Made by a program: the position numbers and the translations under genes. The notes under the pieces were generated by a model. That model ran no database searches. It had not been told where the DNA came from and saw only the letters and a list, made by a program, of their open reading frames with translations. A stretch of DNA of 64,000 nt from Armatimonadota bacterium (GTDB lineage: Bacteria > Armatimonadota > UBA5829 > DSUL01), in assembly GCA_025998755.1 (NCBI GenBank), contig AP024674.1:876467-940466 (forward strand). Direction: 5' to 3'. How positions within the stretch are numbered: position 1 is the stretch's first letter; the number at the start of each line of letters is the position of its first letter. Below, one piece after another: positions 5,958 to 64,000 of the stretch.

Positions 5958-6189
5958 GAAGGGCCCGGACTTTAGCCTTCAGTTCTTCCGGGCACTTTTC
6001 GCCGCGGCCTTCTTCCCGTACCCGCTGCCAAAGGAGCGCCTCGAACGCGAATCTGCTGCAACAGTGGCGGCAGAGATCCAGGTGGACCTCCACTTCCTCC
6101 AGCGACGCCGCTGGACCCTCCCTGTCCAGGTAATCGTAAAGGCGGCTGACGGCTTCAGCGCAGTTGATCTGCCTAACTCGATGCGACAT
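5944..6189 (-). CDS. anti-sigma factor (zf-HC2 type)
   Basis: 81-aa protein with HxxxCxxC motif (HLDLCRHCC); overlaps 3' end of the ECF sigma gene by 17 nt. Confidence 0.65.
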
Positions 6190-6748
6190 ATCCCATTTCG
6201 CGAGCTTGTTCGTAGAGAAACTTCTGTAGCAGCTTCCTACCGCGGTACAATCTGGACCGAACCGTGCCGATGGGAATGCCCAGGATGTCTGCTATCTCCT
6301 GGTAAGCCAGACCTTCGATGGCATTCAGGACCACCACCAGGCGGAACTCCTCCGGAAGACGGTCTATGGCCGCCATGATATCCTCGTGCAGGAACCTGTT
6401 GAGCACCTGCATCTCCGGATCGCTCGCCGATTCGCTTTGCCGTCGGACCTCGCTGAGGAAGTAGAAATCTTCTACATCCGGCAGGTCCACGCGTTCCGGT
6501 TCCTTTGACTTTTTGCGGTAGCCGTTGATGAAGGTGTTTGTCAATATCCGGAACAACCACGCCTTTATATTGGTTCCGGACTGGAACTGGTGGAAATTGC
6601 GGAACGCGAGCAAGACCGTCTCCTGGACCAGGTCTTCGGCGTCGGAGGAGTTTCGCGTCATCCTCAGCGCCGCGGAGTAGAGACTGTCGAGAAGTGGAAG
6701 GACCAGCTCTTCGAACTCTTTTTTGGCTGCTGTGTCGGATCCGGTCAT
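6173..6748 (-). CDS. RNA polymerase ECF-type sigma-70 factor
   Basis: Region 2 ([30 protein letters not shown]) and region 4 HTH ([21 protein letters not shown]); ORF-track start 6886 treated as N-terminal extension, ATG at 6748 chosen. Confidence 0.8.
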
Positions 6749-6976
6749 TGGGAACTGCTTCTGTCTTCGATAAGGCAGCCGGGCCATTTCCGCCCGGGGT
6801 GCGCCGGCGCCGTGCAGTATACTTCGTAAGTTCGCGCTCTGTCCAATGAACGGCGCGTCATCGTGCCGCAGGGAAGCCGACGCCAATCAATACGCGATTA
6901 CCCCGGGATACCGTTTCGGTAAACATTCCGGTGCCCAGGCCGAGAATCATCGCCGTGCGAATGGAGTGAATAGGAC

Positions 6977-54578: not shown

Positions 54579-55559
54579 CTAGTCGTAGATACCCTCGCGT
54601 CGCCACACGTCCAGAATGAGCTCATAGCGAGACAGGCGCATTCCAGTGTAGATGCAGTTGCTGGTGGAGAAAATGTAGCCGTAGCCGGGCATTCCGTGGC
54701 GCAGGGCGTAACGGGCGGACTCGACACAGTCTTCGTCCGTTCCTGTGTCCAGCAGTCCGCAGTTCACGTTGCCAATCAGGCACAACCGTTGACCGTAAAG
54801 CCGCTTCACCTCCGCGATGTCCACTCCCGCCTGGGGATCAAGGGAATGCAGCGCGTGAGGACCGGCTTCCACGAGTTGATCAATGATGGGCATGATATTC
54901 CCGTCGGTGTGCTTTATGGTGTAGAACCCCATCTCCCTATAGCCCATGATGATCTGCTTCAGATACGGCGCCACAAACTCCGCGAACTGATCCGGACTGA
55001 GGAAGGGACCCGAATTCAGGCAGTAGTCCGAACAGAGGGCGAAGCCGTCCAAGCAGCCGTGTTCCCGCAGAACACGTGCTCGCTCCAGTGCCGCGTCCAC
55101 CATTCTCGAAGCCTCGTCCTTGATGCCTGCAGGATCGTCCGCAATCCGGTAGCTGAATTCCACCATCCGATCCCCCGGCGGTATGCCGTAGGTAGCGTCG
55201 CCATGGAGCATCAGGAAATACTTTAGACCGGACCGTTGACGGATGACATCCAGGAGCCGCCGCGTTTCATCAAGGTCGCCAGGGTTCGGGTGCACGAAGA
55301 TCGCATCGTGCTGAAAGCGCTCAGCAGTGGCGATGAAGACGTCGGCCATATCCTGTCGATGTAGCTGGCGCTCCTTCTCCTGCATCTGATCCCACTGCCC
55401 GTAAGCCCGGTGCAGGGGATGCACCTTCCCGAACGCTTCCATGGTGAGGAAAAAGACCAGCTCGAAATGCGGCACGCGCCCCTTGAGAGGCCTGCGCTCT
55501 AGCGCGGCAATGAAACGTTCACGCGGCATAAAGTCCTGGCCGACCGTTGTGTCCTGCAA
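54579..55559 (-). CDS. uroporphyrinogen decarboxylase (URO-D)-like family protein
   Basis: URO-D-like TIM-barrel sequence features across 326 aa; sits inside a sugar-type operon, so not assigned to heme synthesis. Confidence 0.6.
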   Translation of the reverse strand: MQDTTVGQDFMPRERFIAALERRPLKGRVPHFELVFFLTMEAFGKVHPLHRAYGQWDQMQEKERQLHRQDMADVFIATAERFQHDAIFVHPNPGDLDETRRLLDVIRQRSGLKYFLMLHGDATYGIPPGDRMVEFSYRIADDPAGIKDEASRMVDAALERARVLREHGCLDGFALCSDYCLNSGPFLSPDQFAEFVAPYLKQIIMGYREMGFYTIKHTDGNIMPIIDQLVEAGPHALHSLDPQAGVDIAEVKRLYGQRLCLIGNVNCGLLDTGTDEDCVESARYALRHGMPGYGYIFSTSNCIYTGMRLSRYELILDVWRREGIYD

Positions 55560-55586
55560 TTGATCTCCTTGGTTGCGACAAACCGC

Positions 55587-56324
55587 CTAGAGATAATGGA
55601 TCCTGTCGCGGTACTGCTCCAGCAGACGCGCGTTGTATTCGTCGCCTCCGTCCAGATTGGCGCTCCTGAAGACTGGCGGCTCAATGCCCCTCGCAAGGCA
55701 GATCTCCACCACCTCGACTGTGAGCGCATTCACCAGGGCGATCCCAGTGAGCGAAGAGAGGGGACCAATCCGCTGAGGGCATCCGGGAACCTCCACGGCC
55801 GCGTCTCCGACAGGCGCTCCGTTGTCCAGGACAACGTCACACAGGTCCGGCAGCTTGAGTCCCGAGGAGTCGCGACTTGATACCGCCGACGAATATGCAA
55901 CCGAGGTCACTCCGATGACCTTAATCTGCTGCTCGCGGGCTGCGCGCGCCATATCCACAACCACCGGGTTCCGGCCGGATGTGGAGGCGATGATCAGGAC
56001 ATCTCCGGCCGACGCAGGCGATGAGAGGAGCAGCTCCCGCCCGAGTCCCGGAATCCTTTCGAATCGCGAGGTGGCCGTCACGGGTCGGACGGAAAGGTTC
56101 ATTCCGTGAGGATAGATAGGGTTGACCAGCATCAATCCGCCGGTCCGATACACCATCTCTTCCGCAATCATGAACGAGTGGCTGGCCCCGAATGCGAACA
56201 GGCTGTTTCCCTGGGCAATAGCATCAGCAATGATGCAGGCAGCCTTGTGAAGATTGTCTTTCTGCCCTGTCCGAATCTTCTGCAAAGCTCCGGCGGCCGC
56301 GTCAAAATAGCTCTCCATCGGCAT
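55587..56324 (-). CDS. SIS-domain sugar-phosphate isomerase-like protein
   Basis: SIS fold features (NSLFAFGASHS, DVLIIASTSGRNPVVVDMARAAREQQIKVIGVTS). Confidence 0.65.
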   Translation of the reverse strand: MPMESYFDAAAGALQKIRTGQKDNLHKAACIIADAIAQGNSLFAFGASHSFMIAEEMVYRTGGLMLVNPIYPHGMNLSVRPVTATSRFERIPGLGRELLLSSPASAGDVLIIASTSGRNPVVVDMARAAREQQIKVIGVTSVAYSSAVSSRDSSGLKLPDLCDVVLDNGAPVGDAAVEVPGCPQRIGPLSSLTGIALVNALTVEVVEICLARGIEPPVFRSANLDGGDEYNARLLEQYRDRIHYL

Positions 56325-56328
56325 AAGG

Positions 56329-57066
56329 TCAGTAGCCCCTCTCGTTGTAGCGCTGAAGGCACTGCTCGTAATGGGCCGGACCCTCAGGACGGTTCACGCT
56401 TACGAAGACCGTGGGCGGGTCGCCCTCTGCCGCCATCTTCTCCATCACCGTCCCCCAGAGCATCCAGCCCAGGACGGTCATCGCCACGCCGGAGAGAGGA
56501 ATGGCTTTGACCTCCAGTCCCGGAACGTCCACGCAGGCATCCCCGTAAGGAACGCCGATATCCAGCACAATATCCGCAGCATCGCCCAGCTTCTTGCCGG
56601 ACGGATGCTGGGACTCTACGCGCGACGAATACTCCTTTGAGACCAGGGCAATAACGCTGACACCCTTCTTCTGGCACGCCAGCGCCATCTCCACGGCCTG
56701 ACGGCTCCTGCCAGATACCGAGGACAGCAACATCACGTCGCCTGCCTTCAAAGGGCTCTGTGAGACCGCAAAGCGGACGCGAGCCAGATCGGAGTCAGGG
56801 TCAGAAGAACGTTGCTGTCGGATGCAGTCGGGCAGCGGGGCCTGGAGGCTTATCGCAAAGGAGAACCGCTGGACCGCCGCCAACCCGCCTGCTCGATTGA
56901 TGAAATCTCCTTCCGTCCCGTGCCCGATGTTATGGCAGAATACGGCGCCGCCGGAACGGAGCGCCTGGACCACCAGATCCGCGGCGCGGTTTACCTGCTC
57001 CATCTGGGTGGATCCAAGGAAATCCAGAAGCTCCCGCACCCGATCCAGATACATCAGAGCCACCAT
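56329..57066 (-). CDS. SIS-domain sugar-phosphate isomerase-like protein (paralog)
   Basis: Paralogous to 55587..56324 (GAVFCHNIGHG, DVMLLSSVSGRSRQAVEMALACQKKGVSVIALVS); ATG 57066 preceded by aggggga. Confidence 0.65.
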   Translation of the reverse strand: MVALMYLDRVRELLDFLGSTQMEQVNRAADLVVQALRSGGAVFCHNIGHGTEGDFINRAGGLAAVQRFSFAISLQAPLPDCIRQQRSSDPDSDLARVRFAVSQSPLKAGDVMLLSSVSGRSRQAVEMALACQKKGVSVIALVSKEYSSRVESQHPSGKKLGDAADIVLDIGVPYGDACVDVPGLEVKAIPLSGVAMTVLGWMLWGTVMEKMAAEGDPPTVFVSVNRPEGPAHYEQCLQRYNERGY

Positions 57067-57070
57067 AGCG

Positions 57071-58084
57071 TCATCCCCCTTGTGCCGCGGGCAGCGCTTC
57101 ACGAAAGAGCTCGCCAGCGGTATTGAGCAACCTGGCTCGCCGTGCGGGATAGTCTTCTACAGAGATCTCCCTGAGAATGACCAGCGCAGCCCCGATCACG
57201 GGTGGCTGTCTGACCTGCACGACCTCCAGAGCCGGAGCTTGCTCCGCGAGAACCGCCTTCACATGCTCAGCGTAAAGACGCGAGTTCGCCCCCACACCGC
57301 CCGACAGAGCCACCGTGCACGGCGTGGCGATCAGGCCGACGCTTTCGGCGGCGTCCCGGATGGTCTGGGCGAGATCGGCGGCTGCCGACTGGAGGATCCT
57401 CAGAGCGATGGAATCTCCCTTTTCGGCTTCCTGGTCCACGATGCGCGCCAGGGCCGCGATCTCCGCCCGGTCTCTGCGTTCCAGCGAATAATCCACAAGC
57501 CTCCACCCGGACTCCTCCGGCGATTCCCCGGTGCAGGCCCGGTAGACCGGCTCGGCCAGCGACGTGCGGCGCCTCTCCGACCACCCGGAGCAGGCTGCGG
57601 CCCTCATGGCCTCACGCCCGATCTGATAACCTCCCCCGTGGTCGCCCAGCTCCGGTCCAAGACCGTCCAGTAACACATCTCTCCCCTCAGGCGAACGCGC
57701 ATAGACCAACGCTCCAGTCCCCGCGATGGCCACGATTCCCCATTGCATTCCAGCCAACTCCATAGGGCAATCCTGCTCGCGGACCGCGTGCCACATCGTT
57801 TGAAAGGAGCCTTGCAACGGCTCGATGGGCGGGCCGAGATCGGGGGAAACGTTGTGGTGCAGGAACGCCGGCCTTGAATCCGCCAGGGCCTGTTTGACCG
57901 CACGCTCAAGACTGCGACGGCTACGTCCGGATCCGCTCACCCCCCGGCCACCTTCCGGGTCCTCTATTCCGCTTCGTCCCACAGCGATGGCCGTTCCGTC
58001 CAGCTGGCACAGCAGCGCATCACACTTGCTGCCTCCTCTATCCACTGCGAGGACAAACGTACCGATTTCAGGATGTGCCTTCAT
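57071..58084 (-). CDS. BadF/BadG/BcrA/BcrD-type ATPase (N-acetylglucosamine kinase-like)
   Basis: N-terminal phosphate-1 motif VLAVDRGGSKCDALL and ASKHA-fold features (VAIAGTG, TVALSGGVG). Confidence 0.75.
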   Translation of the reverse strand: MKAHPEIGTFVLAVDRGGSKCDALLCQLDGTAIAVGRSGIEDPEGGRGVSGSGRSRRSLERAVKQALADSRPAFLHHNVSPDLGPPIEPLQGSFQTMWHAVREQDCPMELAGMQWGIVAIAGTGALVYARSPEGRDVLLDGLGPELGDHGGGYQIGREAMRAAACSGWSERRRTSLAEPVYRACTGESPEESGWRLVDYSLERRDRAEIAALARIVDQEAEKGDSIALRILQSAAADLAQTIRDAAESVGLIATPCTVALSGGVGANSRLYAEHVKAVLAEQAPALEVVQVRQPPVIGAALVILREISVEDYPARRARLLNTAGELFREALPAAQGG

Positions 58085-58326
58085 GGACGCCTTTTCCCGC
58101 TGAGCCTAAAACTCGTTGACCGGACCGCCCCAGAGTTCGTCCCGGCGGCACTGCTCCTCCTGCTGCAGTTTGGCGTATCTGCCAGGCCCATTGTCAGGCA
58201 AGAACGCGCAAAACCTGAAAACTCCCGGCTTTTTGCCGTTACTTGGGAGGTAGCAGTGTGTTACAACACCTGTAAACCGAGTCCAGAACCAGCGAGAGGA
58301 ATGGGAAACCCTTGCCTTCTGCCAGA

Positions 58327-59106
58327 ATGATGTTTGAGATGACCGTCCGCGATGTGGAGGAAGGTCTGCGGCAGACGCAGACCATCATTGTCCCGGTCGG
58401 CATCCTGGAACAGCACGGCTACCACTTGCCCCTGAGTGTGGATATTCACAACGCTGTGGAACTTGCGCGGCGCGCATCCGAACGGACCGGCTGCTTCGTG
58501 GCCCCTCCCGTCCACTATAACTTTTCCGGGGGAAGCCTCCCCGGTACGATCAACATCAGCCCGCCGGTGTTCTCGCTGATGCTGATGGACATCCTGCAAA
58601 GCCTTGTGATGCAGGGGTTCCGCAGGATCCTTCTGCTTCTCGGGCACGCTGGCTCGGAAAGTCAGGCAGCGGCCCGAGACGCGGCCCATCATTTGCAGCG
58701 GCTGCGGCCACCGGTGCCGGGGCTGGTGATCTGCGTTGTTCCCTTCACGGAGCTATCTCCCACCATCCAGCAGGCGATGAACGATGGCGATTATCACGCG
58801 GGATTCTATGAGACATCCCTGATGCTCTACTGGAAGCCCGAGATGGTCCGCTTGGATCTGGCGGCGATGGATGAGCCGTCGGTAGCGGAGATGATGCGCC
58901 GGGATCCGGACGCTTATGCCATAGCAGAGAAACGGACGGCCAGCCCATTCGAAGTACCGCGGGTGTTTCAGGATCCGCGGATTAGGGTGGGGGTGATGGG
59001 GGACTACACCGGAGCCAGCGCCGAGGTGGGAGAAAAGATCGCGGGAGAATGCGTGGATGCGCTTGAATCCATCATCCGCCTGATGGAGGAGGGAGGGGTG
59101 GCATGA
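58327..59106 (+). CDS. creatininase-family amidohydrolase
   Basis: Motifs IIVPVGILEQHGYHLPLSVD and LLLLGHAGSES; ATG 58327 chosen (TTG 58312 possible). Confidence 0.75.
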   Translation: MMFEMTVRDVEEGLRQTQTIIVPVGILEQHGYHLPLSVDIHNAVELARRASERTGCFVAPPVHYNFSGGSLPGTINISPPVFSLMLMDILQSLVMQGFRRILLLLGHAGSESQAAARDAAHHLQRLRPPVPGLVICVVPFTELSPTIQQAMNDGDYHAGFYETSLMLYWKPEMVRLDLAAMDEPSVAEMMRRDPDAYAIAEKRTASPFEVPRVFQDPRIRVGVMGDYTGASAEVGEKIAGECVDALESIIRLMEEGGVA

Positions 59107-60149
59107 TCCGTTGGGGGATTATCGGGTGTGGAGGCATAGCGCGAAGGCGTGTGCTGCCTGCCAGGACGGACATGCGATCCACCCGCTTCGTCGCGGTAAT
59201 GGACGCAGATCCGGATGTGACCCGGGATGTCGCGGAGGAGACCGGTACGCGCGCCTGTTTCAGCTTGGAAGAGATCCTCGATGACCCAGAAATTCAGGCG
59301 GTCTACATCGCTACGCCGGTCCATCTTCACCATCCTCAGGCTCTATTGGCCGCCGTCAAAGGCAAGCACGTCCTGCTCGAGAAGCCTCTTGCGCTGAATG
59401 TGGAACAGGGTCGGGAAGTCGTGGAAACCTTCGAGCGCAAAGGCCTTCTGCTGATGGAAGGCTATATGATGAAGTTCCACTCTCTCAACGGACGGGCAGC
59501 AGAAATGGTTGCCCGCGGAGATCTGGGAAAACCCGTCTTCCTGCGCGCGCAGCTGACCTGCTGGTACCCTGAGATTCCGGGCGCCTGGAGGCAGGATCCC
59601 TCACTTGGCGGCGGAGGGGCACTGATGGACATGGCCACGCACCTTTTCGACCTGCTGGAGGAGATCTCTGGCTCCTCCATTGTGGAGGTGACAGCGCTAG
59701 TCGCCACTCAAACGTTCTCGTACCCCGTGGAGGATAGTTCCGTGACGCTGCTTGGTTTCCAGAATGGAGCCTTCGGGGTTGTGGAGGCTTTTTACAACAT
59801 TCCGGATGTGGCGGCTCAAGGGCGGTTAGAGGTCTACGGAACGCAAGGTTCGATCCTGGCAGAGGGAACGATCGGGCAGGATCCGGGGGGCTCAATGCAT
59901 GCTTTCCTGAGTCCGTCGGAAAAGGGGTACGACGCTCTTCAGCAACGCGCGCCGTCTGACCTGCGGCGGCAAGTCATCATCGCACCTCCCGTAAATATGT
60001 ACGCTGCCGAGTTCGATTACTTTTCCGAATGTATCGCCGACGGTCGCCCTCCAGCCAAAAGCTCCGGCAGGCAGGGGCTGCATATTCTGGAGGTGGCTCG
60101 CGCAGCGTATGAGAGCGCGCGCACGGGACGGGCTGTCTGTCTCAGTTGA
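59103..60149 (+). CDS. Gfo/Idh/MocA family oxidoreductase
   Basis: N-terminus MIRWGIIGCGGIARRRVLPA and EKPLALNVEQ motif; ATG overlaps upstream stop (ATGA). Confidence 0.8.
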   Translation: MIRWGIIGCGGIARRRVLPARTDMRSTRFVAVMDADPDVTRDVAEETGTRACFSLEEILDDPEIQAVYIATPVHLHHPQALLAAVKGKHVLLEKPLALNVEQGREVVETFERKGLLLMEGYMMKFHSLNGRAAEMVARGDLGKPVFLRAQLTCWYPEIPGAWRQDPSLGGGGALMDMATHLFDLLEEISGSSIVEVTALVATQTFSYPVEDSSVTLLGFQNGAFGVVEAFYNIPDVAAQGRLEVYGTQGSILAEGTIGQDPGGSMHAFLSPSEKGYDALQQRAPSDLRRQVIIAPPVNMYAAEFDYFSECIADGRPPAKSSGRQGLHILEVARAAYESARTGRAVCLS

Positions 60150-60165
60150 ACACAAAAGGAAGAAG

Positions 60166-60205
60166 CACACAAAAAACCGGCCGCACCGTCTAGATGCGGC
60201 CGGTT
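60166..60205 (-). terminator. rho-independent terminator (for the minus-strand Spy-like gene; possibly bidirectional)
   Basis: Hairpin ccggccgca (60177-60185) / tgcggccgg (60195-60203) with 9-nt loop; on the minus strand it is followed by TTTTTTGTGTG (plus 60166-60176). Confidence 0.55.
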
Positions 60206-60226
60206 CTCATAAGTTCTGATGCCGAG

Positions 60227-60967
60227 TTACGGGCTGGTCGGGCGAGACCATCCCTGCCACGCTCGTGCGCGCTGCTCGAACTGCCTACGCTGCTCCGGGG
60301 TGAACACGCTCATCACCTGCTCATGCGTCTGAGTTCGGATCTCCTGCACGCGGAGGGCCCTCTCCTGAGCCGTCAGGTTCGGATCAGCCATCACGGCAGC
60401 CACCTGCCGGGCGCCGTCCTGCCGGATCTGCCGGATCCGCTCCTGCTGCTCTGCTGTGAGCTGCACCCCGGGAACCAGGCCGGACATCCCATAACCGGCT
60501 CCCAACCAGGCAGCGCCCGGCCCGATGCCCCGGCCTGCTCCGCGGCCCATTCCAGCACCCCGTCCGAGGCCGGCACCGCAAGGACCGCGGCCTAGACCAA
60601 CACCGGGAGCTGCGCCCGGCCAGCGGCTCTGGAATTGCTGGCGCTGCTCAGGTGTCAGGACGTTCATCACCCGCTCATGACCCTCCTGACGCACCTTCGC
60701 AATCTCGGCGGCGATCTGCTCGGGCGTCAAGGAGCTGTCCCAGCGGATCTGCTGCACCCGCTGCATCGTCTCGGAGCGGATCTGGGCCACCTGCCGCTCC
60801 TGTTCCGGCGTCAGCTGCACACCGGGAACCAAACCGATGGCAGCTGCCCCCCGGCCGCCACCGCGCCCGGCGCCGCCGCGCCACCCCTGTGCATCGGCCT
60901 GAAGGGCCAATGACGCAACCATCGCGGCTGCCGCAAATACCATAAGAATGGTCGCAATTCTCGTCAT
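60227..60967 (-). CDS. periplasmic Spy/CpxP-like LTXXQ-motif protein (tandem duplicated)
   Basis: Signal peptide (ILMVFAAAAMVASLALQA); LTPEQ/LTAEQ motifs in two repeated modules separated by Gly/Arg-rich linker; ATG 60967 preceded by ggagga. Confidence 0.65.
   Translation of the reverse strand: MTRIATILMVFAAAAMVASLALQADAQGWRGGAGRGGGRGAAAIGLVPGVQLTPEQERQVAQIRSETMQRVQQIRWDSSLTPEQIAAEIAKVRQEGHERVMNVLTPEQRQQFQSRWPGAAPGVGLGRGPCGAGLGRGAGMGRGAGRGIGPGAAWLGAGYGMSGLVPGVQLTAEQQERIRQIRQDGARQVAAVMADPNLTAQERALRVQEIRTQTHEQVMSVFTPEQRRQFEQRARAWQGWSRPTSP
60287..60833. repeat. intragenic tandem duplication (~190 bp units, ~355 bp period) within the Spy-like gene
   Basis: Units ~60287-60480 and ~60641-60833 align visibly (ctgctc...gttcatcacc.gctcatg ... 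ctgcac.ccgggaacca). Confidence 0.5.
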
Positions 60968-61087
60968 CTCCGGTATCCTCCGCCTTTCGCTTACCGAACC
61001 ATCATGTGTCATCAGGTTTAGATGACTCACCTAAGCTGTGTCTTCACGGGATAAGACGACAGCCGCCTCGGTTTCATTCAATGTTTT

Positions 61088-62296
61088 TCAGGGGTCTACG
61101 TCTTGGAGCACTTCCGGCGGCAAAAGGTCCGTGGTGAGCAACCGAGCTTCGGGGTCGGCCAGCACGCACGCTCTCTCGATCACATTTTCCAGCTCCCGCA
61201 CATTGCCAGGCCACCGGTAGGCCGTCAGGGCATCCAGGAACTCCTGAGAAGCCCCCTCGATCTTGCGTCCTTCTTCAGGTGCGTATTTGCGGATAAAGTG
61301 GTCCACAAGCAGGGGAATGTCTTCCGTGCGCTCGCGGAGAGGAGGAAGGTCTATCTGGACTACCTTGAGCCGGAAGTAGAGGTCCTCGCGGAACTCTCCC
61401 TTCTCCACCAGCTTCGCCAGGTCCTGGTTCGTGGCTGTGATCAACCTGACATCCACGCGGATGGTCTTGTTGCCCCCCACGCGCTCGAACTCACGCTCCT
61501 GAAGCACCCGCAGCAGCTTGCGCTGCACCTCCATCGGAATGTCACCGATCTCGTCTAGGAAAAGCGTCCCTTTGTGCGCCAGCTCAAAGCGTCCAATCTT
61601 CTGGGACAGCGCACCGGTGAAGGCACCTTTCTCGTGACCGAAAAGCTCGCTCTCCAGCAGGTTCTCGGACAGAGCGATGCACGCAACCGCCACAAAGTTC
61701 TCCGACGCGCGAGGGCTGTTGAAGTGAAGAGCCCGGGCGATCAGCTCCTTACCGGTTCCACTCTCCCCGCGGATGAGGACGGAAGCCCGGGACTGGGCCA
61801 CCCGTTCCACCAGGTCGAACACCTCCCGCATCTTTGGGGACTGTCCCACGATGTTGTCAAAACGGTAAGACTGCTTCAGTTTTTCACGGACGCCCGTGTC
61901 CGGAGACTCCAGTTCCCGGCGCTCGATGGCCTTTCGCACCAGAACCTTCAAGTCGTCTATGTCGAAAGGCTTGGTGACGTAGTCGAAGGCGCCCAGGCGC
62001 ATCGCATCCACAGCCGTGCGGATGGTCCCGTGAGCGGTAATCATCACAACGGAGACACGGGGGTTGGTCTCCCGGACAACCTCCAGAAGCTCCACACCGT
62101 TGATGTCCGGCATGATCAGGTCGCTGATCAGAACATCCGTGTCCCGGTTGGCCTTCAACAGCTCCAGCGCCTTTCTGCCGTTCTCGGCCGTGAATACCTG
62201 ATAGCCCTCCCGCTGGAACGTGGCTTCCAGCACGCGACGGATGTTCGGCTCGTCGTCCGCGATCAGAATGGTTCCGGCTTTGGCGTTCTCCGGCAA
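61088..62296 (-). CDS. sigma54-dependent response regulator (receiver + AAA+ domain, no C-terminal HTH)
   Basis: Receiver [15 protein letters not shown]...[12 protein letters not shown]; AAA+ motifs [30 protein letters not shown]; only ~33 aa follow GNVRELEN; TTG 62296 chosen because the ORF-track N-terminus overlaps the kinase gene. Confidence 0.7.
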
Positions 62297-62391: not shown

Positions 62392-63990
62392 TCACGCCCG
62401 TTCCATCAGATCGGGCGGCGCAGGCTCGTGCTGCTGAAGCAAAGACGGCGCTGGTCCCCTGACAGGAAGGTGTATCCGGAAGAGCGATCCTTCTCCCTCG
62501 GCAGACTCTACGGCGATATGCCCTCCGTGGTTCTGGATGATCTTCTGGACCACTGGCAGGCCGAGCCCGGTGCCTTTCACTTTTGTCGTGAAGAACGGTG
62601 TGAAAATCCGCTCCAGGCGGTCCGACGGGATTCCGCAGCCCGTGTCGCGCACCCACAGCTCCACGCTCTCCGGCCAATCGGCCGAAGGACGCGCCCCGAG
62701 TTCCAGTGTGCCACCGTCCGGCATCGCCTGGATGGCGTTCAGGATCAGGTTCAGAAGCACCTGCTCTAGCTGCTTGACATCCGCCAGGAAGAGGGGTGTT
62801 CCTTCCTGGACGGCTACGGCGCAATCAATGCCTGCCTGTTCCAGTTGCGCGGCCACGCGCGAGCGCCCTCGCTCAAGGAGCTCAAGCGCCCTGACCTCCG
62901 ACACTTCCAGCTTCAAGGGACGAGCGAAGTCCAGGAACTCGCTTGCGATCCGGTTGAGCCCATCCACCTCCTCGATGATGATGTTGAGGAACTCCCGGTC
63001 GGCGGGGTCGGTAAGCTCGGAGTTGAGGAACTGCGCCGCTCCTTTAATGGATGAAAGTGGGTTGCGCAGCTCGTGCGCAATGCTTGCCGCAAGCTGACCG
63101 ATGGCGGCCAGCTCTCCCATGCGGCGTACCTCTTCCTGCATCCGCACTTGCCGGGTCATGTCCTCGAACACGATAACGAGTCCCAGCGGCTCGCCATCCG
63201 TATTTCTGAGCTGCGAAGAACTTAGTGAAATGTGAAGCTGCGATTCCGGCCCGCTCTTCAGGGTGAGGACGATGCCCCGCTCTGGTGGCGCGCCGTCCAG
63301 AACGCGCGCTAGGGACGCCTCCAGAGTGGCCAGGTCCGAAGGAGCTATCTCGAAGCGCTCCAGCACCTCGGTGAACGTGACTCCCAAAGTAGCGGAAGTT
63401 TCGATTCCCAGGATCTCCTCCGCCGCACGGTTCCAACTCACAACCCGACCCGAGCTGTCCAGCGTCACCACTCCTGCCGGCACGCTGGACAGGATGTTAT
63501 CGGTGTAGGTGGTCAGTGCAGTCAAAGCTTCCAGGCCGCGGTAGATGGATGCGGCCTGCGACGCAATGACTGAGAGCACCCGCAGATGGTCTTCCGTATA
63601 GACGTTGGGCGAGCGGCTGTGGACACTGAGGACCCCCACGACTTCGTCTTGCACCATCAGGGGAATGGCCATGACGGACCGCAGCAGCGGGTCGCGCGCC
63701 ACCTCCGCGAATCGCGCATCCTTCTGGATGTCCGGCAGGACCACTGCTTTGCGCTCGTGCACCGCCCAGCGCGCCAGACGGTAACCCCCTGAGCTGTCCC
63801 CGGCCTGTCCCGTGCGCATCTGCAGAGCGCCGGACTCCGGATCCACCGTCCAGATGAAGCACTCGTCGCATTCCACCAGATCCCGCACGATGGCCACGAT
63901 GCTAGCAAGCGCTTCGTCAAGGTTGGCGGCGGTGCTGATTCGCTGGGAAAGCTCATACAACGCGGAGAGCTCCAGCACCTTCTCGCGCAT
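62392..63990 (-). CDS. cytoplasmic sensor histidine kinase (GAF-PAS-HisKA-HATPase)
   Basis: H-box [18 protein letters not shown] boxes [14 protein letters not shown] and [17 protein letters not shown]; no TM segments seen; start within 10 nt of window end. Confidence 0.8.
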
Positions 63991-64000
63991 GCGGCGTTCA

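Follow-up and report, generated by a model that had tools for sequence, protein, structure and literature searches.

A predicted periplasmic protein of the Spy/CpxP superfamily with two LTXXQ modules in an Armatimonadota bacterium

The DNA considered in this study, called the window below, is a stretch of 64,000 nucleotides (nt) from an Armatimonadota bacterium (GenBank assembly GCA_025998755.1, contig AP024674.1, positions 876,467 to 940,466 of the forward strand). Close to its far end, on the minus strand, lies a gene whose product contains two copies of an LTXXQ module. An initial annotation, made without database searches, had called the product a Spy/CpxP-like periplasmic protein built by internal tandem duplication, and had suggested that it serves as an envelope-stress or metal-stress output of the sigma-54 two-component system encoded next to it. 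The first of these proposals holds up well; the second does not. The protein is laid out as signal peptide, arm, module 1, linker arm, module 2, and short tail, according to the following features, where pLDDT is the predicted local distance difference test score from AlphaFold and aa stands for amino acids.

60227..60967, minus strand: complete gene for the tandem-LTXXQ secreted protein, 246 aa and a TAA stop, from the open reading frame translation
60978..60982, minus strand: Shine-Dalgarno sequence GGAGG, 10 nt ahead of the ATG, invariant in four loci
60890..60967, minus strand: signal peptide of the Sec type, residues 1-26, MTRIATILMVFAAAAMVASLALQADA; no other stretch of the protein is strongly hydrophobic
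60836..60889, minus strand: disordered arm at the N-terminus, rich in Gly and Arg, residues 27-44, with 44% Gly and a net charge of +3
60617..60835, minus strand: module 1, residues 45-117, with helices at 54-75, 82-103, and 106-115, pLDDT 90-95
60482..60616, minus strand: Gly/Arg-rich linker, residues 118-162, 42% Gly, net charge +4, one Cys, two Met
60263..60481, minus strand: module 2, residues 163-235, with helices at 172-194, 200-221, and 224-241

The gene is a reading frame of 246 codons without internal stops, beginning with ATG at 60967. Both this ATG and the GGAGG ahead of it are unchanged across an alignment of the upstream spacer from the window locus and three related loci. A longer version that starts with GTG at 61030 finds no support among the homologues. 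The same protein, 100% identical, has been deposited as hypothetical protein KatS3mg024_0777 of an Armatimonadota metagenome-assembled genome. Neither a lipobox nor a twin-arginine motif is present in residues 1-26, and the predicted cleavage site is preceded by A-D-A (A-x-A type). On the strength of the hydrophobic N-terminal segment and this site, the protein is predicted to be exported to the periplasm, in agreement with the initial annotation.

The internal tandem duplication is evident in both protein and DNA. The halves of the protein align with 46% identity over 91 positions (E=4e-23), and two pairs of DNA blocks recur at one and the same spacing of 354 nt: 60423-60482 with 60777-60836 (72% identity) and 60275-60325 with 60629-60679 (76% identity). 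When the gene is compared with itself, in the manner of a dot plot, an offset of 354 is the clear maximum, ranking first of 470 (43.4%, as against 28.9 +/- 2.5%; z about 5.8). The DNA units originally proposed, ~60287-60480 and ~60641-60833, do fall inside module 2 (60263-60481) and module 1 (60617-60835), but the full repeat unit is larger, 118 aa, and takes in the Gly/Arg-rich leader (GAGRG...G-L-V-P-G-V) that precedes each helical module. Since the leader is part of each repeat unit, the N-terminus carries such an arm too, residues 27-44 corresponding to the last part of the linker.

The two modules are 45% identical in amino acid sequence. Compared without gaps, their nucleotide identity is only 56%, and 49% at third codon positions (33% is expected from composition), so that the duplication must be old. 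A gapped MAFFT alignment yields 74%, a value that overstates the nucleotide similarity. What similarity is left between the modules at the level of DNA is largely a matter of protein constraint.

AlphaFold runs based on 8 and on 108 aligned sequences gave the same picture. The helices of both modules are predicted with pLDDT 90-97, and residues ~20-44 and 123-162, with values below 50, are presumably disordered. The placement of the modules relative to each other is not confident (predicted template modeling score, pTM, of 0.36 with 8 sequences and 0.44 with 108). The segment between the modules, with its high Gly content and positive charge, is just the low-complexity Gly/Arg-rich linker that had been described at the outset; its length differs among close relatives, and it holds the only Cys of the protein.

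All helices start with a box of the L-T-x-x-Q type. The earlier count of two LTXXQ modules stands, but there are three such helix caps in each module, not two: LTPEQ at residues 52, 80, and 104 of module 1, and LTAEQ at 170, LTAQE at 198, and FTPEQ at 222 of module 2. Across 333 modules of the family, the three cap positions are the most conserved of all, with L at 91-98% and Q at 98-99% in the outer two caps and 47% in the middle one. Residues of the type that serve as metal ligands are few (1 Cys, 2 His, and 6 Met in the protein, of which the arms hold 1 Cys, 2 Met, and 0 His). A module His was considered as a metal ligand for the family and set aside, being conserved in just 36% of family modules.

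The mature protein is strongly basic, with an isoelectric point (pI) of about 11.5, a net charge of +10, and 27 Arg to 1 Lys, and much of the excess positive charge is located in the Gly/Arg arms. Such extreme basicity, along with the large disordered portions, might bring to mind a structural protein of the envelope, whose RG-rich arms bind lipopolysaccharide, peptidoglycan, polyphosphate, or nucleic acid and whose modules are mere spacers. I regard this as quite improbable, because conservation within the family sits in the helical module and not in the arms, which vary widely among relatives in length and composition (Met/Pro-rich, Lys-rich, or very short).

The family to which the protein belongs is clear from profile searches, and it is the one first proposed. 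Pfam LTXXQ (PF07813) matches it with 32.7 bits, above the gathering cut-off of 24.3 (E 1.3e-7), and matches 106 of 108 two-module relatives. The second-best match, Pfam Metal_resist (PF13801, the ZraP/CnrX family), is borderline, at 26.2 bits under a cut-off of 29.2, and is found in 69 of the 108 relatives. When PDB sequences were searched with a profile of eight homologues, the top four matches were all Spy (E 1.6e-4 to 3.5e-3). As for structure, a Foldseek search of PDB with the first model gave STV (5ihf) with probability 0.99, with CnrX and NccX also in the list, and the second model gave Spy at 8.6 (71 residues, 2.1 A), STV at 8.4, Spy again at 8.0, CpxP at 7.8, and CnrX at 7.1, and four of the top five belong to the family.

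Spy, the best PDB sequence match, is an ATP-independent periplasmic chaperone of E. coli (3o39, 3oeo). The tandem protein has in common with it the LTXXQ helix caps, including the C-terminal motif LTPEQ(R/K)xQF, as well as export, basic character, and disordered termini. The two differ in architecture: Spy has a single module per chain, with about 100 residues that are ordered and a pair of LTXXQ motifs, and assembles into a non-covalent dimer, whereas the tandem protein has two shorter modules (about 64-73 aa), with three motifs each, in one chain with Gly/Arg-rich arms. One module spans about 70 of the 96 residues that are ordered in a Spy protomer, and thus one module corresponds to one protomer. 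CpxP (the periplasmic inhibitor and adaptor of CpxA; 3itf) is also single-module, unlike the tandem protein, as is STV, a Salmonella VirG-like LTXXQ protein without Gly/Arg arms and of poorly defined function. The design is shared by LTXXQ proteins with two modules from Acidobacteriota, Bacteroidota, and Armatimonadota, which have a signal peptide, at least two modules, and a low-complexity linker, as here.

A first search for homologues with the full protein gave only 11 matches, probably because Gly-rich words swamped the candidates, and this was solved by the use of profiles made from one module or from two. The profile of a single module (73 positions), run against 1.84 billion cluster representatives, found 5729 proteins at E<=1e-3, of which 757 remained at E<=1e-10. 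At E<=1e-10 the two-module profile matched at least 2230 clusters (90% identity), from Terriglobales, Blastocatellia, Chitinophagaceae, and further groups. Many already bear a JGI label, either "Spy/CpxP family protein refolding chaperone" or else "protein CpxP". A set of 158 proteins was composed of the 150 best-scoring matches to the module profile and whatever else the search with the full protein had found. Two modules are present in 114 of them and three in 28, 8 contain a single one, and a few contain four to seven; the ranking favors multi-module proteins, scores being additive. Two modules per chain are likewise found in 106 of the 120 best profile matches of a further set. Judging from these sequences, the tandem design is very common and not special to this locus. 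Single-module secreted relatives (90-133 aa) are numerous too, many of them named Spy/CpxP family chaperones, and their existence marks the module as an autonomous unit.

The linkers of the family are mostly of low complexity, often rich in Gly, Met, and Pro (GAGPG, MGPGM), with frequent Cys directly after module 1. Those in the clade of the window protein are long, 44-56 aa as compared to a median of about 24, and rich in Gly and Arg rather than Met and Pro. In one relative (P0006, at L007 1028-1990) two LTXXQ modules are fused to a C-terminal cytochrome c domain (PF13442/PF00034), and another, P0014, also carries, or seems to carry, such a domain. These fusions fit a periplasmic location, and together with the Met-rich (MGPGMM) and Cys-containing linkers they hint that part of the family is connected with redox processes or copper.

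The relationships amongst modules bear on the history of the duplication. For the five closest proteins, the first modules group together as orthologues and the second modules do likewise (75-90% between modules in the same position, about 45% across positions), and hence the duplication predates that clade. Other proteins present a different picture, the identity of modules within the protein reaching 73% in P0006, 95% in P0007, 90% in P0025, and 88% in P0144, values that speak for repeated duplication or for homogenization. In the last three the modules are far closer to each other than to any other protein, which points to recent duplication or to gene conversion. Amongst 202 two-module proteins, pairing by position (module 1 with module 1 and module 2 with module 2) wins in 8318 protein pairs and cross pairing in 7273. 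Modules closest to each other were counted in 16 of the 202, a number biased by the clustering of the library at 50% identity. A single ancient duplication for the whole family was rejected on the pair counts, there being no family-wide positional orthology. Its absence is likely due to recurrent duplication, gene conversion, or mere saturation. In either case two modules per chain is a state repeatedly reached or maintained.

The question of what controls the gene requires a description of its surroundings. The tandem gene is the last of three co-oriented genes, in the order kinase, regulator, LTXXQ protein, and the features around it are these.

60160..60210, minus strand: intrinsic terminator, a 16-bp GC-rich hairpin (60172-60208) and then UUUUUUG
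61042..61081, minus strand: promoter-like box TGAATG-N16-CGTCTTATC-N2-GTGAAG, within the spacer of 120 nt that follows the regulator gene
61088 to about 62290, minus strand: NtrC-type response regulator with REC, Sigma54_activat, and AAA_lid_14 domains
62392-64000, minus strand, continuing past the end of the window: histidine kinase with GAF, PAS, HisKA, and HATPase domains

The gene is convergent with a strong terminator, as had been noted; the hairpin folds with -33.7 kcal/mol (z -4.1) and is common to the tandem gene and to the facing gene of a GFO/IDH/MocA oxidoreductase, which ends at 60149. A simple terminator scan of 59900-61400 returned no sites and so missed this hairpin, which was found by folding, and an Rfam scan of the gene and its flanks returned only sub-threshold chance matches, on the same hairpin. 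The oxidoreductase gene closes a syntenic block (54579-60149) that also encodes a URO-D-like protein, two SIS-domain proteins, a BadF/BcrAD-type ATPase, and a creatininase-family protein. This block, of sugar or amino-sugar type, appears to be functionally unrelated to the LTXXQ gene.

On the other side of the gene, the box in the spacer stands out. In the alignment of four loci its flanks are invariant, its internal spacer is variable, and the surroundings have diverged. In the form GAAT-N17-CGTCT it occurs exactly once in the 64-kb window, and it is found at five loci of close relatives. The box matches neither the sigma-70 nor the sigma-54 pattern, and its layout (GAAT..CGTC) has a -35/-10 spacing like that of extracytoplasmic function (ECF) sigma factors, which suggests that it is a candidate promoter for an alternative or ECF sigma factor, or else a regulator site. 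No sites came from a sigma-70 promoter scan of 59900-61400. In relatives, the kinase operon has a canonical extended -10 sigma-70 promoter, TGATATAAT (L001 about 960-1000, with equivalents in L003 and L004), and no sigma-54 element lies upstream of it. The housekeeping promoter of the lineage is therefore conventional, and the box upstream of the tandem gene is of another type. No terminator was found by the scan after the regulator gene, so read-through from the upstream operon is possible. The presumed 5' leader contains a hairpin, GTCATC-taaacct-GATGAC (about 61007-61028, minus strand), kept only in the closest relative (L001).

The absence of a sigma-54 promoter from the 120 bp ahead of the gene, already reported in the initial annotation, is confirmed. 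No TGG-N9-TGC element lies in the upstream region (60968-61087), the only GG-N10-GC there overlaps the ribosome-binding site, and the alignment of spacers from four loci contains no conserved -24/-12 element. The regulator stops after the lid, with no HTH DNA-binding domain, as do its homologues of 399-402 aa. In this it resembles FlgR and CtcC, which are activators without a DNA-binding domain. No rpoN was detected in the window.

The kinase is a poor candidate for conversation with a periplasmic protein. Its frame has no in-frame stop ahead of base 64000, and homologues of full length measure 1173-1183 aa and contain several GAF domains as well as PAS. Three of these homologues have no convincing transmembrane segment (one has a single borderline window, at 1.61 with a threshold of 1.6), and therefore the kinase is a large cytoplasmic sensor, without periplasmic sensing or contact by a periplasmic protein. 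ZraS and CpxA, by comparison, are kinases that a periplasmic protein can touch, and CpxP acts on the periplasmic domain of its membrane kinase, whereas the kinase adjoining the tandem gene has no convincing membrane segment.

The arrangement of the three genes tells the same story. The order kinase, regulator, LTXXQ gene is kept at the loci of four relatives (63-82% identity), but so are the convergent sugar-metabolism genes, and the order thus amounts to plain synteny. At seven more distant homologous loci the adjacency to kinase and regulator is absent. Three homologues of about 40% identity have as neighbors PPDK-like and MsrB genes, URO-D-like and polyprenyl synthase genes, and a GH3 glycosidase gene. 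In view of all this, the proposal that the gene is an output of the adjacent sigma-54 system, for envelope or metal stress, is not supported: there is no promoter for sigma-54 to use and no DNA-binding domain in the regulator, and, as a controller, the system offers a cytoplasmic kinase, an adjacency confined to close syntenic relatives, and a box of a different kind upstream.

One distant homologue (P0008, at L006) is convergent with a gene for an MsrB (SelR) methionine sulfoxide reductase (L006 3427-3858), which may be coincidence. The activity of Spy in E. coli reportedly depends on the repair of oxidized Met (PMC12503329).

The locus of the tandem gene raises the matter of ZraP, since ZraP also adjoins a sigma-54-type regulator. 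By analogy, the tandem protein might be a metal-stress protein that binds Zn or Cu through the Cys, Met, and His of its Gly-rich segments and acts as a metallochaperone and as feedback repressor of the sigma-54 system, in the way that ZraP acts on ZraSR. Besides the position of the gene directly downstream of the regulator, one may point to Metal_resist as second-best Pfam match, to its matches in most of the two-module relatives, and to the linkers of closer relatives, rich in Met, Cys, and Gly (MGPGM, GPCG) with a recurrent Cys after module 1; the tail of E. coli ZraP is likewise rich in Gly, Met, Cys, and His. I nonetheless think a ZraP-like role unlikely. The Metal_resist score stays under its cut-off, and the arms of the window protein are poor in just those residues that would bind metal. 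The sigma-54 promoter is lacking, the regulator has no DNA-binding domain, the multi-GAF/PAS kinase is out of reach for a periplasmic protein, and the adjacency is lost in more distant homologues. Furthermore, the tandem gene lies downstream on the strand of the regulator, whereas the ZraP arrangement is divergent, and the tandem architecture itself sets the protein apart from ZraP and CnrX.

Other members of the superfamily do lie near regulatory genes. The gene of the two-module protein P0121 (L010 997-4696) is divergent from those of an OmpR-type regulator and a HAMP kinase, in the layout of cpxP-cpxRA. This was one of four further two-module loci; another (L011) has a CHASE3 hybrid kinase nearby, and the other two have no regulator. 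Association of the superfamily with some two-component system is thus recurrent, the type of system varies, and nothing ties the tandem gene to sigma-54. Spy itself is under the control of Bae and Cpx in E. coli (PMC6737893), and no such system is present at the locus of the tandem gene.

These observations may conceivably be taken to mean that the protein is less a general chaperone than a signaling adaptor like CpxP, which titrates misfolded proteins of the envelope or reports them to a sensor in the membrane whose gene lies elsewhere in the genome, for instance an ECF anti-sigma factor. The cpxP-like arrangement of P0121 would fit, and so would the conservation of PF13801 proteins as neighbors of several ECF sigma groups (PMC7826278). 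The box upstream of the tandem gene is ECF-like in layout, and the window does contain a gene for an ECF-type sigma factor, at 6173-6886 on the minus strand (tblastn, E 1e-23 with E. coli RpoE and 1e-25 with B. subtilis SigW). On the other hand, no partner sensor adjoins the tandem gene, the region upstream of the ECF gene does not contain the box of 61042-61081, and the -35 part of that box is GAAT where AAC is usual. I would give an adaptor role little credence as the primary one, keeping in mind that signaling and chaperone roles are not mutually exclusive in the LTXXQ family.

This leads to what I consider the probable function of the tandem protein: a Sec-exported, basic member of the Spy/CpxP/ZraP (LTXXQ) superfamily, it would serve the envelope as a holdase or folding chaperone that needs no ATP, possibly as a pseudo-dimer in a single chain. 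CpxP works as a homodimer with a positively charged cradle. So does Spy, a stable homodimer in which four-helix protomers are antiparallel and form a positively charged concave cradle; with disordered termini, it captures clients by electrostatic attraction first and by hydrophobic contact afterwards (PMC8144458, PMC4791398). Each three-helix module of 73 aa is structurally the equivalent of one Spy or CpxP protomer, and the duplication would place both halves of a Spy-like dimer in one chain, making it a pseudo-dimer or at least a bivalent binder. Given that one module matches one protomer, that the module can stand alone, and that two per chain are preferred, this is the most economical reading of the architecture. 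The disordered Gly/Arg arms would lend the protein further reach and positive charge, with which to capture unfolded or anionic proteins of the envelope quickly by electrostatic attraction. Transcription probably proceeds from the gene's own box, neither sigma-70 nor sigma-54 in type, possibly with read-through from the kinase and regulator genes, and would end at the strong intrinsic terminator.

Several results weigh against this reading. Foldseek E-values against PDB are all above 0.1. The NCBIfam equivalog for Spy (NF007769) scores 34.2 bits with a cut-off of 174, and the CpxP models do no better, with 10.8 bits against 160 for the cell-envelope stress modulator CpxP (NF007687) and 20.8 against 148 for the CpxP family protein (NF009391); with scores so far under the cut-offs, the protein is a member of the superfamily and not an orthologue of either. 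The distant homologues in L006-L008 lack the box in their upstream regions, and it was assigned as a promoter by its pattern only. Finally, a literature search found no experimental study of tandem LTXXQ proteins.

More broadly, and more speculatively, tandem LTXXQ proteins in general may be single-chain Spy cradles, with many independent origins or re-homogenizations and with charged or metal-binding arms that tune capture, so that covalent-dimer holdases would be widespread in Armatimonadota, Acidobacteriota, and Bacteroidota and would amount to a natural experiment on the reasons why Spy must dimerize and on how disorder tunes chaperone action. I offer this as a tentative idea.

The practical outcome at this locus is that a "hypothetical protein" becomes a tandem Spy/CpxP-family periplasmic protein, and that its suggested wiring to the neighboring sigma-54 system should not be propagated. 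Among periplasmic proteins it is of a known kind, in a tandem form that is widespread yet unstudied. No ATP-independent chaperone is better understood than Spy, and current models of how it works center on its dimeric cradle and its flexibility. If the function proposed here is correct, a family with fused halves and variable disordered arms would constitute a ready-made series of variants with which to test those models, and it would bring proteostasis of the envelope into view for phyla in which nothing is known of it, among them Armatimonadota and Acidobacteriota.

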